Notes under the pieces: model-generated
What the model saw: only the letters and a program-made list of their open reading frames with translations
The model's database searches: none
What the model was told of the DNA's origin: nothing
Assembly: GCA_016188215.1 (NCBI GenBank)
Contig: JACPIF010000011.1
Location: forward strand, 172,159-236,158
DNA: 64,000 nt
Origin: Candidatus Woesearchaeota archaeon
GTDB lineage: Archaea; Nanobdellota; Nanobdellia; Woesearchaeales; JACPIF01
Direction: 5' to 3'
In this document: positions 9,960 to 57,539 of the stretch, one piece after another
How positions within the stretch are numbered: the stretch's first letter is position 1
How the letters are laid out: each line of letters starts with the position of its first letter
Position numbers and translations under genes: made by a program

Positions 9960-10066
9960 GCATGACTCAGCCGAGATAAATCTCGGCTGCTGTGGGTTGT
10001 CCGCGAACCGCAGCTTACTGGCAAATATTCGCGGACCAAATCGCGCCACGCGAAGCCGCCTCATGC
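9960..10066. repeat. Modular REP-like palindromic element A
   Basis: Hairpins CAGCCGAGA-TAAA-TCTCGGCTG (9968-9989) and GTCCGCGAA..TTCGCGGAC (9999-10036); modules recur near 53.1 kb and 57.5 kb. Confidence 0.75.
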
Positions 10067-29630: not shown

Positions 29631-29731
29631 CCTATATTCCCGGCAAGCGGGTATAAATACCTTTTGGTTTGCGAGTATTCCAGGCTGCTCACCAAAAATC
29701 TTATAAATGCCCGTCTAATCTAATCGATTAA

Positions 29732-29922
29732 GGGCCCGTGGCTCAGCCTGACTAGAGCGCTCGACTGATAGGTATCGAGACTAACGTCTCGGGACCTCTC
29801 GGAACGCAAGTTCCGAAAGGTTAAGCATCTCTCAGCTTTTCGGAGGTGAGGGTGTAGAGAGCGATGCTCTCTGGCTTGACTCACAAATCGAGAGATCCGC
29901 GGTTTAAATCCGCGCGGGCCCA
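29732..29922 (+). tRNA. tRNA-Ile(GAT) with 116-nt intron at 37/38 (29771-29886)
   Basis: GGGCCCG acceptor; CTCGA-CTGATA|A-TCGAG anticodon arm; CGCGG T-stem; relaxed BHB. Confidence 0.9.
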
Positions 29923-29971
29923 TTCATTTTTACAAAAAATATTTAAAACAAGTCCACAAATAGTTATAACT

Positions 29972-30379
29972 ATGGAAGCATCAGTTGAACACCTCTTCAG
30001 TTATGCAAAAATATCAACAGAAAAATTTATTAAGAATTATTGGGATGTCGGCGCTACTGGACTGATTGCAGCAACGGCAGCATACTATCTTGATAGAACA
30101 ACAGCCTTAATTATTGCAGATTTAGCTCTTATGAGTGGTGGGTTAGGAGCCATGACTTGGGCTGGCTATAAATCAAACGCTATTAGGGTTTTTCAGGATT
30201 CTTGTGGTTATGTGATAGGGACATATTTAAGCCAATTTGCACAAGGACAATTTCCTAGAGGCTTTCTTTCCGAATTTCAATGGGGAGAATTTCTCTTTTC
30301 TATTGCAGCATTGGCAATGGCATCATACGGAAGGGAAACAAATAATGCAAATAGTAATCAACTAGAAAATTTGGTTTAG
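29972..30379 (+). CDS. Hypothetical membrane protein
   Basis: ATG at 29972 after a TATA box; hydrophobic segments. Confidence 0.6.
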   Translation: MEASVEHLFSYAKISTEKFIKNYWDVGATGLIAATAAYYLDRTTALIIADLALMSGGLGAMTWAGYKSNAIRVFQDSCGYVIGTYLSQFAQGQFPRGFLSEFQWGEFLFSIAALAMASYGRETNNANSNQLENLV

Positions 30380-53093: not shown

Positions 53094-53297
53094 GTAGTCG
53101 GTGAGCTAAAGCTCACCTCCGTGGTTACGTGGGTCCGCGAACCGCGATTGTATTGCAGAATCGCGGACATTTGGCACAGGAGACGAGATAAATCTCGTCT
53201 CAACCTGCAGATGTTAAGTTTCAATCATCCAATTAGAAAGGTAAATGGGCACGGCATGAGGAAAAGAGGTGTCAAAACCGCATGCCGTGCCGCATTT
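53094..53297. repeat. Modular REP-like palindromic element B
   Basis: GTAG-TC-GGTGAGC-TAAA-GCTCACC; GTCCGCGA..TCGCGGAC; GAGACGAGA-TAAA-TCTCGTCTC; GGCACGGCATG..CATGCCGTGCC. Confidence 0.75.
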
Positions 53298-57431: not shown

Positions 57432-57539
57432 CCGCTCGCTTTGCTCGCGGTTTTTAACTATTCAACATGTCCCCCGATTTTGAAGTAATACACAGTTCGG
57501 GGGACTATTCGCACCGTGCGGCGAGATTCATCTCGTCGC
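57432..57539. repeat. Modular REP-like palindromic element C
   Basis: CCGCTCGCTTTGCTCGCGG; GTCCCCCGA..TCGGGGGAC; GCGGCGAGA-TTCA-TCTCGTCGC. Confidence 0.7.

Follow-up and report, generated by a model that had tools for sequence, protein, structure and literature searches.

The tRNA-Ile(GAU) gene of the groundwater Woesearchaeota archaeon studied here (G000) contains a 116-nt intron at canonical position 37/38, and our data make it probable that this is a protein-spliced intron made of two separable pieces, a genus-specific core of 68 nt and a dispersed module of 48 nt, hereafter module M, that was gained or lost at the DNA level. The gene lies in the window, a stretch of 64,000 nucleotides (G000:C2:172159-236158) from a 1.11-Mb assembly of 13 contigs with 44% G+C; window positions are used below unless a contig is named, the features of the locus are all on the forward strand, and G001 and G002 are two congeners. 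None of the three genomes, which measure 1.1-1.7 Mb, contains McrA, and the DPANN label is used for them here. New are a filled/empty pair of sites resolved to the single base, a module of fixed layout whose parts show three-way covariation, and an intron of composite build. The literature searched offered no account of tRNA introns with hairpin repeats in DPANN archaea.

The 5' exon (29732..29770) comprises the acceptor, D arm, anticodon stem, anticodon GAU and A37, and the 3' exon (29887..29922) comprises A38, the anticodon stem, the variable loop, the T arm with its loop UUUAAAU, the acceptor and the discriminator A. The intron occupies 29771..29886, exactly where the sequence-only reading had placed a 116-nt intron in tRNA-Ile(GAT), and the joined exons are recognised by ARAGORN as a 75-nt tRNA-Ile(gat) with a regular cloverleaf. 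An intron after position 37 leaves the anticodon loop CUGAUA/A (the stroke marks the intron), and the same letters occur without an intron in 64 relatives. With introns allowed, ARAGORN recovers the 191-nt gene (29732-29922) and its 116-nt intron under the label Cys(gca) i(37,116). We consider this label a sliding artefact and chose Ile over it because only the Ile placement fits the intron-less CTGATAATCGAG of those 64 relatives; a Phe(GAA) placement was ruled out on the same ground. The Ile anticodon-arm pattern has one forward and no reverse match in G000, which indicates a single tRNA-Ile(GAU) gene. ARAGORN predicts 20 tRNA genes in the assembly, 12 of them with introns, the second-longest of which measures 57 nt. 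The gene is missed both by plain ARAGORN (no introns) and by the Rfam tRNA model at gathering score, and automatic annotation would leave G000 without a tRNA-Ile(GAU). Upstream, the TATA-like box TTATAAAT at 29701..29708, some 24-31 nt 5' of the tRNA start, is the probable promoter, and the block AAAAATCTTATAAAT is conserved in both congeners; a run of five T just 3' of the gene (29927..29931) is the probable terminator.

The D-loop AGCCUGACUA (29745-29754) has A at the expected G19 and the T-loop UUUAAAU (29902-29908) has U at the expected C56, unlike G002, which has GG and C at these sites. By our own numbering this looks like a compensated tertiary pair, G19-C56 having become A19-U56 in G000, and the change possibly followed the imprecise loss of a D-loop intron of the kind found in the congeners.

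Folded alone, the intron reaches -53.1 kcal/mol; 200 shuffled versions give -34.8 +/- 3.5, and none of them folds as well (z -5.18). The complete pre-tRNA shows the same pattern (z -5.19). The four hairpins that had been read from the sequence, with loops UAAC, GCAA, UUCG and GAU, are all present in the fold: H1 (CGAGAC-UAAC-GUCUCG, 29776-29791), H2 (UCGGAAC-GCAA-GUUCCGA with its GNRA loop, 29799-29816), H3 (29829..29852; a 6-bp stem, a G/G internal loop, a 3-bp stem and the UUCG loop) and H4 (29855..29873; an 8-bp stem with the GAU loop, AGAGAGC-GAU-GCUCUCU at 29856-72). A closing stem that had gone unnamed, P1, pairs 29819-26 with 29874-81 and encloses H3 and H4. The first bases of its 5' strand (GGUUAAGC, 29819..29826) double as the 3' flanking repeat of module M, and U111 of its 3' strand (GCUUGACU, 29874..29881) can alternatively pair with A35 in the central splice-site helix. 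In constrained folds, C112 and A113 of the 3' tail of the intron, CACAA (29882..29886), would pair with G34 and U33, and A115, A116 and A38 would form the modelled 3' bulge.

The intron of euryarchaeal tRNA-Trp is similar in length to this 116-nt intron, likewise structured and at 37/38, and reportedly carries a C/D-box guide (Singh et al. 2004, cited in PMC4090602). The possibility that the tRNA-Ile intron carries a C/D-box or other guide RNA in the same way is nevertheless effectively refuted. The sequence-only reading had seen no clear C/D boxes, and by eye we found no C, D, C' or D' box and no H/ACA layout in the intron; with RUGAUGA, which we take to be the C box consensus, there is no C box, the sole CUGA being that of the anticodon loop itself. 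An ACA near the 3' end of the intron follows the three-way junction and offers no pseudouridylation pocket. The same reading had proposed an Rfam search and named a match to a known C/D guide as the result that would count against it; the intron gave nothing at gathering scores. Relaxing the cutoff to E<=10 for the region 29650-30000 brought up only three chance-level rows with E 4-7; the tRNA model accounts for one, on the 3' half, and none is a small-RNA guide family. The intron also holds ACCUC (29793-29797), which resembles the 3' end of 16S rRNA, and the Shine-Dalgarno-like GGAGGUGA (29842-29849), and the two could pair with each other.

The excised intron could instead be a stable, probably circular ncRNA with its own function, as a protein scaffold, decoy or guide, for which the hairpins are kept. 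The very stable fold speaks in favour of this, as do a 17-nt H4 core and UUCGGAGGUG that are identical in G000, G001 and G002 although the exons differ; by our own count about one fifth of the rest of the 3' core differs between G000 and G001, while the 17 nt are unchanged. The changes in G001 and in the metagenomic contig X7 described below mostly keep pairs, C63U and A64G in H3 of X7 being kept as wobbles, and AUCUCUC in H3 complements GAGAGAU in the 3' exon, with six of seven pairs surviving in G001 by our own reading. However, the intron has no Rfam family and no C/D or H/ACA features, half of its structure (H1 and H2) is dispensable in G001 and in the metagenomic contig X8, a search of 401 genomes recovered the whole intron within the genus only, 64 tabulated relatives have no intron at all, and a two-sided change occurs in only one of 26 core pairs. 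We regard a functional ncRNA as quite improbable, and H1-H4 most likely have no function beyond their own folding. The invariant 17-nt H4 core still hints at a sequence constraint that the composite-intron reading does not explain.

Among 41 relatives, a match extending beyond the 5' exon was seen only in G001 and G002. The G002 gene carries two introns, one of 30 nt in the D loop and one of 115 nt in the anticodon loop that forms the four hairpins seen in G000, and the G001 gene has a 67-nt anticodon-loop intron consisting of P1, H3 and H4 only, plus a 29-nt D-loop intron. When the intron was used as a query against the 401 genomes of the order, the matches were the genus and one intergenic place, on contig C5 of G002; twelve other genomes gave E 0.007-0.09, and the nine places inspected were judged unrelated, most of them within long coding-like stretches. 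A genome-collection scan returned the two congeners only, and a metagenome pattern scan returned one contig, by eye a G001-like gene region. There is no second copy of the whole intron in G000 (best other match 13 nt, E 1.4). The 3' 68 nt, that is P1, H3 and H4, have no copy elsewhere in G000 and were found, among the 401 genomes, in the genus only.

The Ile anticodon-arm pattern matched 161 of the 401 genomes of the order, and lengths were tabulated for 145 of the 161, 64 of which carry the intron-less CTGATAATCGAG. Of the 20 longest-looking matches, which were fetched, 14 are tRNA genes and six (G043, G026, G243, G009, G373 and G112) are not; these six were dropped, leaving 139 rows, which include three genomes flagged as unpublished (G208, G133 and G122; used in this tally alone) and in which intron lengths below 36 nt are those given by the pattern. 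The comparison across relatives proposed in the sequence-only reading does bring out length variation, from no intron in 64 of the 139 genomes to 116 nt: introns of 11-20 nt occur in 36 genomes, of 21-40 nt in 26, of 41-70 nt in 10 and of more than 70 nt in three (G000, 116; G002, 115; G307, 79), with a median of 23 nt for the non-zero tabulated lengths. Among the rows listed from the 401 genomes scanned, no other confirmed tRNA-Ile(GAU) intron at 37/38 is as long as that of G000.

The separability of the two pieces can be read at the locus itself, in contigs of other groundwater metagenomes (runs X7, X8 and X9) compared over 29650-30000. The X8 contig (246 nt, with different outer flanks) matches 29732-29769 with no other letter in 38 positions and 29818-29931 with two in 114, and it joins 29769 directly to 29818, with four letters (AGGU) that fit either side; therefore exactly 48 nt, containing H1 and H2, are missing. 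The segment is given here as 29770..29817, the first of five equivalent frames that run to 29774-29821. The empty site retains one AGGU, and the filled site has AGGU on both sides and its complement inside. Elsewhere the X8 contig, a single contig from one run at depth 2.8, is about 99% identical to G000. The congener G001 lacks the same 48-nt segment. The X9 contig keeps H1 and H2 (one other letter over 29751-29848) and has 59 letters in place of 28 at 29723-29750, a net gain of 31 that is compatible with a D-loop intron, while the X7 contig (29691-29923) keeps H1 and H2 with G002-like changes and shows no D-loop gap, and X8 has no D-loop insertion. The D-loop intron of 29-30 nt, delimited from the congener genes (L019 1423-1452 in G002 and L003 924-952 in G001; insertion point 29750/29751 of the window), is present in G001, G002 and probably X9, and absent in G000, X7 and X8. 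Close relatives therefore differ in whether they have the H1 and H2 segment, and likewise in whether they have the D-loop intron. None of the listed records that contain this DNA is an RNA record. We infer that the 48-nt module was gained or lost at the DNA level, and the direction could be either. As for X7, 10 of its 13 differences from G000 are listed, and these include G002-like changes in the intron and no change in the 3' exon, at which G002 differs from G000; judging from this arrangement, the X7 allele is possibly a recombinant.

The segment that comes and goes is part of a repeat. Nine distinct copies of module M in the genus share one layout to the base, composed of a 5-nt flank r5' (A-N-G-U-W), a variable hairpin A of 15-17 nt, a 7-nt linker with the word r' (G-R-G-A-C-N'-U), a variable hairpin B of 20-22 nt and a second 5-nt flank r3' (A-N-G-U-W). 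In the intron copy (29770..29822), r5' is AGGUA at 29770-74, made of A37 and four intron bases, hairpin A is H1 at 29775-90, the linker is GGGACCU at 29791-97, hairpin B is H2 at 29798-29817 and r3' is AGGUU at 29818-22. The base N' pairs with N of r5' in all nine copies (GC in three, UA in three, AU in two and GU in one) and with N of r3' in all nine as well (AU, CG and UA in three each). In total, 94.4% of the cells are paired, a value reached by none of 500 shuffles, and slid controls stay at or below 56%. Since r' is complementary to both flanks, two mutually exclusive 4-bp helices are possible, each lengthening one of the two hairpins. Few lineages are represented among the nine copies, and the covariation therefore counts few independent events.

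The H2 stem, searched as CGGAAC-N3-6-GTTCCG, has four matches in G002, where the reversed control has none, and two in G000, where the control has one; the copies outside the intron sit in strings of short intergenic hairpins. The intergenic copy on contig C5 of G002 aligns with the intron over 33-34 nt at 91% identity, the linker and the following AAGGU included; the orthologous G000 spacer lacks this copy but is too diverged to define its borders. A covariance model of the H1 and H2 stretch (R1), whose E-values are rough, found copies at E<=0.01 in seven of 151 genomes, four of which had supplied training rows. The G000 intron copy scores 61.1 bits by construction, being itself a training row. 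At E<=1, R1 has 21 matches in G002, 20 in G056, 12 in G001, 9 in G000 and 3 in G075. One further copy in G000 is significant (C1:49804-49852, 36.3 bits, E 4e-4), directly 3' of a GTCCGCGA...TCGCGGAC hairpin, and the others there have E 0.13-0.8; a weak match lies inside a mosaic intergenic element at C1:80579, beside a GTCCGCGA-type hairpin. All five non-intron matches in G000 are at or between ORF borders and none is in a tRNA. In G044 (L102 1451-1549, contig C33), modules of about 50 nt with two hairpins stand head to tail; R1 matches two neighbours, and a third copy can be made out by eye immediately before them.

Module-like introns also occur outside the genus. Genomes of three other families (G003, G336 and G146) have 37/38 introns of 44-48 nt with two hairpins joined by GAACCUC or a similar word, the tRNA-Ile intron of G003 also having a UAAC loop, and in these introns the r5' slot is taken by UGAUA, the anticodon plus A37. 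A second model, R2, was built from the nine genus copies only and run on 23 tRNA-Ile loci of other families (29.5 kb). Its first and second ranks, both over the full model length, are the introns of G003 (21.5 bits, E 2.7e-4) and G336 (15.1 bits, E 0.014); that of G146 (7.6 bits, E 1.4) is not significant and was not accepted as a member. Judging from these matches, module M alone is the whole tRNA-Ile intron in two other families. With the module at this site in at least three families and the core in one genus, it therefore could be the 3' 68-nt core, rather than module M, that is the newcomer.

A reading without mobility would have the intron inherited vertically and neutrally, with H1 and H2 arising in place, their likeness to other sequences being convergence, and slippage between the 4-nt repeats having removed 48 nt from X8 and G001. 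Replication slippage is generally favoured where hairpins lie between short direct repeats, as H1 and H2 do here; it also suits this reading that G000 has no whole-intron paralogue and one significant extra module match, and that the link to a transposase, taken up below, failed. We nevertheless hold it to be unlikely: in situ origin sits poorly with a layout identical to the base in nine copies, with the three-way covariation, with the close identity of the intergenic G002 copy across linker and flanks, with the excess of the H2 stem in G002 over the reversed control, and with the R2 matches to introns of other families.

H1 had also been matched, through its CGAGA..TCTCG stem, to the module of three intergenic elements, A, B and C (9972-9985, 53184-53197 and 57522-57535), and this link is weak. 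The overlap with H1 is the 5-bp CGAGA/TCTCG only; the form that is invariant, CGAGAT-NN-ATCTCG, has 10 copies in G000, none for the reversed control and none in G002, which keeps H1 all the same. The CGAGAT-NN-ATCTCG copies have a covarying outer stem, and each has as neighbours a GTCCCCGA/GTCCGCGA-type hairpin and a GC-rich one. In eight of the 10 cases the array is an estimated 11-67 nt upstream of an ORF start, in one orientation, and these arrays may be a leader or promoter-proximal element and not only selfish DNA. A second family consists of strings of three or four short hairpins (AGGAAAUGC.., AAGAAACC.., CAGAAUC.., CGGAAC..) with AGCAU-like linkers, in the same order in different genomes (L018 1370-1530 on contig C11 of G002; C4:124779, C2:258774, C9:145 and C4:75248 in G000). 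The idea that a palindromic element hides in a spliced site is thus upheld for the 5' 48 nt with H1 and H2, a dispersed module present or absent in close relatives, and fails for the 3' 68 nt, which have no copies; the resemblance to elements A-C is slight, and the connection to palindromic elements runs instead through module M, which adjoins GTCCGCGA-type hairpins at C1:49804 and C1:80579.

By its position and by the enzymes predicted from the genome, the genuine intron in tRNA-Ile(GAU) is probably a canonical protein-spliced one. In the module-less form, a constrained fold gives the bulge-helix-bulge geometry at +2.4 kcal/mol over the minimum, with a 5-bp anticodon stem, a 3' bulge of A115, A116 and A38, a central helix of three Watson-Crick pairs (U33-A113, G34-C112 and A35-U111) and one C/C mismatch (C32/C114), a 5' bulge of U36, A37 and G1, and a 7-bp P1. 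The G000 form has two motif-compatible folds, each about 5 kcal/mol over the minimum in model energies; in one, the 5' GGU copy makes the first inner-helix pairs and r' pairs with r3', and in the other P1 is complete and module M lies within the 5' bulge strand. The pair probabilities of the motif are 0.13-0.16, and the minimum-energy fold is without it. These models suggest that a relaxed bulge-helix-bulge can form. No complementarity that could make a nested splice motif around module M was seen between its outer flanks.

G000 has one EndA frame (PF01974, 105.9 bits; 204 aa; C11:158530-158790), which, judging from this single frame, is an alpha4-like enzyme, and an RtcB match (PF01139, 494.6 bits; C11:8837-10018). 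The RtcB match, taken over C11:8649-10018, is split over different frames into three pieces, with a single in-frame TGA; the ligase gene could contain a frameshift or an insertion, or the assembly could be wrong here. An alpha4 EndA with an extra loop is reported, for DPANN lineages, to be accompanied by more disrupted tRNA genes (PMC5829648). As in canonical archaeal bulge-helix-bulge introns (PMC4090602, PMC5829648), the intron is at 37/38 and genes for EndA and RtcB are present; it differs in being much longer than the introns of relatives, whose median is 23 nt, and in having two separable parts.

In the composite reading that we prefer, the pre-tRNA would be made from its own promoter, and the 3' 68-nt core would supply P1, which closes H3 and H4 and would serve as the inner helix adjoining the 5' splice site. 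The other 48 nt, at the 5' end of the intron, would be a copy of module M, with the order A-N-G-U, hairpin A, GAC-N'-U, hairpin B and A-N-G-U, sitting directly after the AGGU that spans the exon-intron border. A single alpha4-like EndA would cut at 29770/29771 and 29886/29887, and RtcB would join the exons and probably circularise the intron as in other archaea; we infer splicing, ligation and circularisation from established archaeal tRNA splicing. The gene would tolerate module M, since splicing removes whatever lies between the two sites and the second copy of AGGU still allows the 5' splice-site helix to form.

In regards to the way module M might move, we compared it with known systems. 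It shares with REP/BIME repeats and IS200/IS605-type single-strand elements (PMC3201880, PMC3333891, PMC8266576) the character of a small multi-copy intergenic hairpin unit found in mosaics and tandem arrays. IS608 (PMC3201880) inserts 3' of a target tetranucleotide, has a guide beside the hairpin foot that pairs with the cleavage sites, and on excision rejoins the donor without gain or loss. Module M likewise has an internal tetranucleotide beside a hairpin foot that complements the flanking tetranucleotide, and its empty site keeps one tetranucleotide copy, like the IS608 donor joint described there; however, module M has one guide-like word for both ends, placed 3' of hairpin A, in contrast to IS608 as described in the same source. 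The likeness to IS200/IS605 is one of sequence features. G000 has no Y1 transposase: PF01797 has no match in this assembly (91% complete) and one each in G001 and G002. Those two Y1 genes are flanked by unrelated hairpins, R1 reaching at most 10.4 bits at the G002 gene (C3:96165-96509), and a Y1 transposase as the enzyme of module M is not supported. The word r' may either guide insertion as in IS608 or be copied from the target. The ends of module M are direct repeats and not terminal inverted repeats, which sets it apart from MITEs.

Transposed introns of Thermoproteales (PMC4090602) resemble module M in that a related intervening sequence recurs at several places in the genome, and it is on such recurrence that gain at the DNA level is argued. 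The Thermoproteales copies, as summarised in two later sources (Fujishima et al. 2010, via PMC4090602 and 10.64898/2026.10.13.758758), lie in other tRNA genes of the same genome, whereas in G000 the other module copies are intergenic, none lies in another tRNA, and the repeat is only part of the intron. In Caldiarchaeum subterraneum tRNA-Thr (PMC3293823), population heterogeneity at a tRNA locus likewise reveals recent intron gain or loss; however, the insertion there measures 1.9 kb and involves a recombinase gene and duplicated pieces of tRNA, and in G000 the module is non-coding, 48 nt long and accompanied by 4-nt repeats.

The route by which archaea acquire tRNA introns is unsettled. This locus provides a natural filled/empty pair at single-base resolution, and it connects the sequence of an intron with an interspersed repeat whose layout is simple and testable. 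Were module M immobile, the locus would still illustrate cleanly how a spliced site can shelter inserted DNA; if it is mobile, it would offer a mechanism for intron growth and possibly for intron origin. We put forward, tentatively and as something short of an even chance, that module M represents an undescribed class of non-coding mobile elements of about 48-55 nt in Woesearchaeota-type archaea, with r' matched to A-N-G-U by pairing (as guide or target copy) and with precise exit, that would enlarge tRNA introns or constitute them. Should this class be real, module M would be a concrete source of archaeal tRNA introns.
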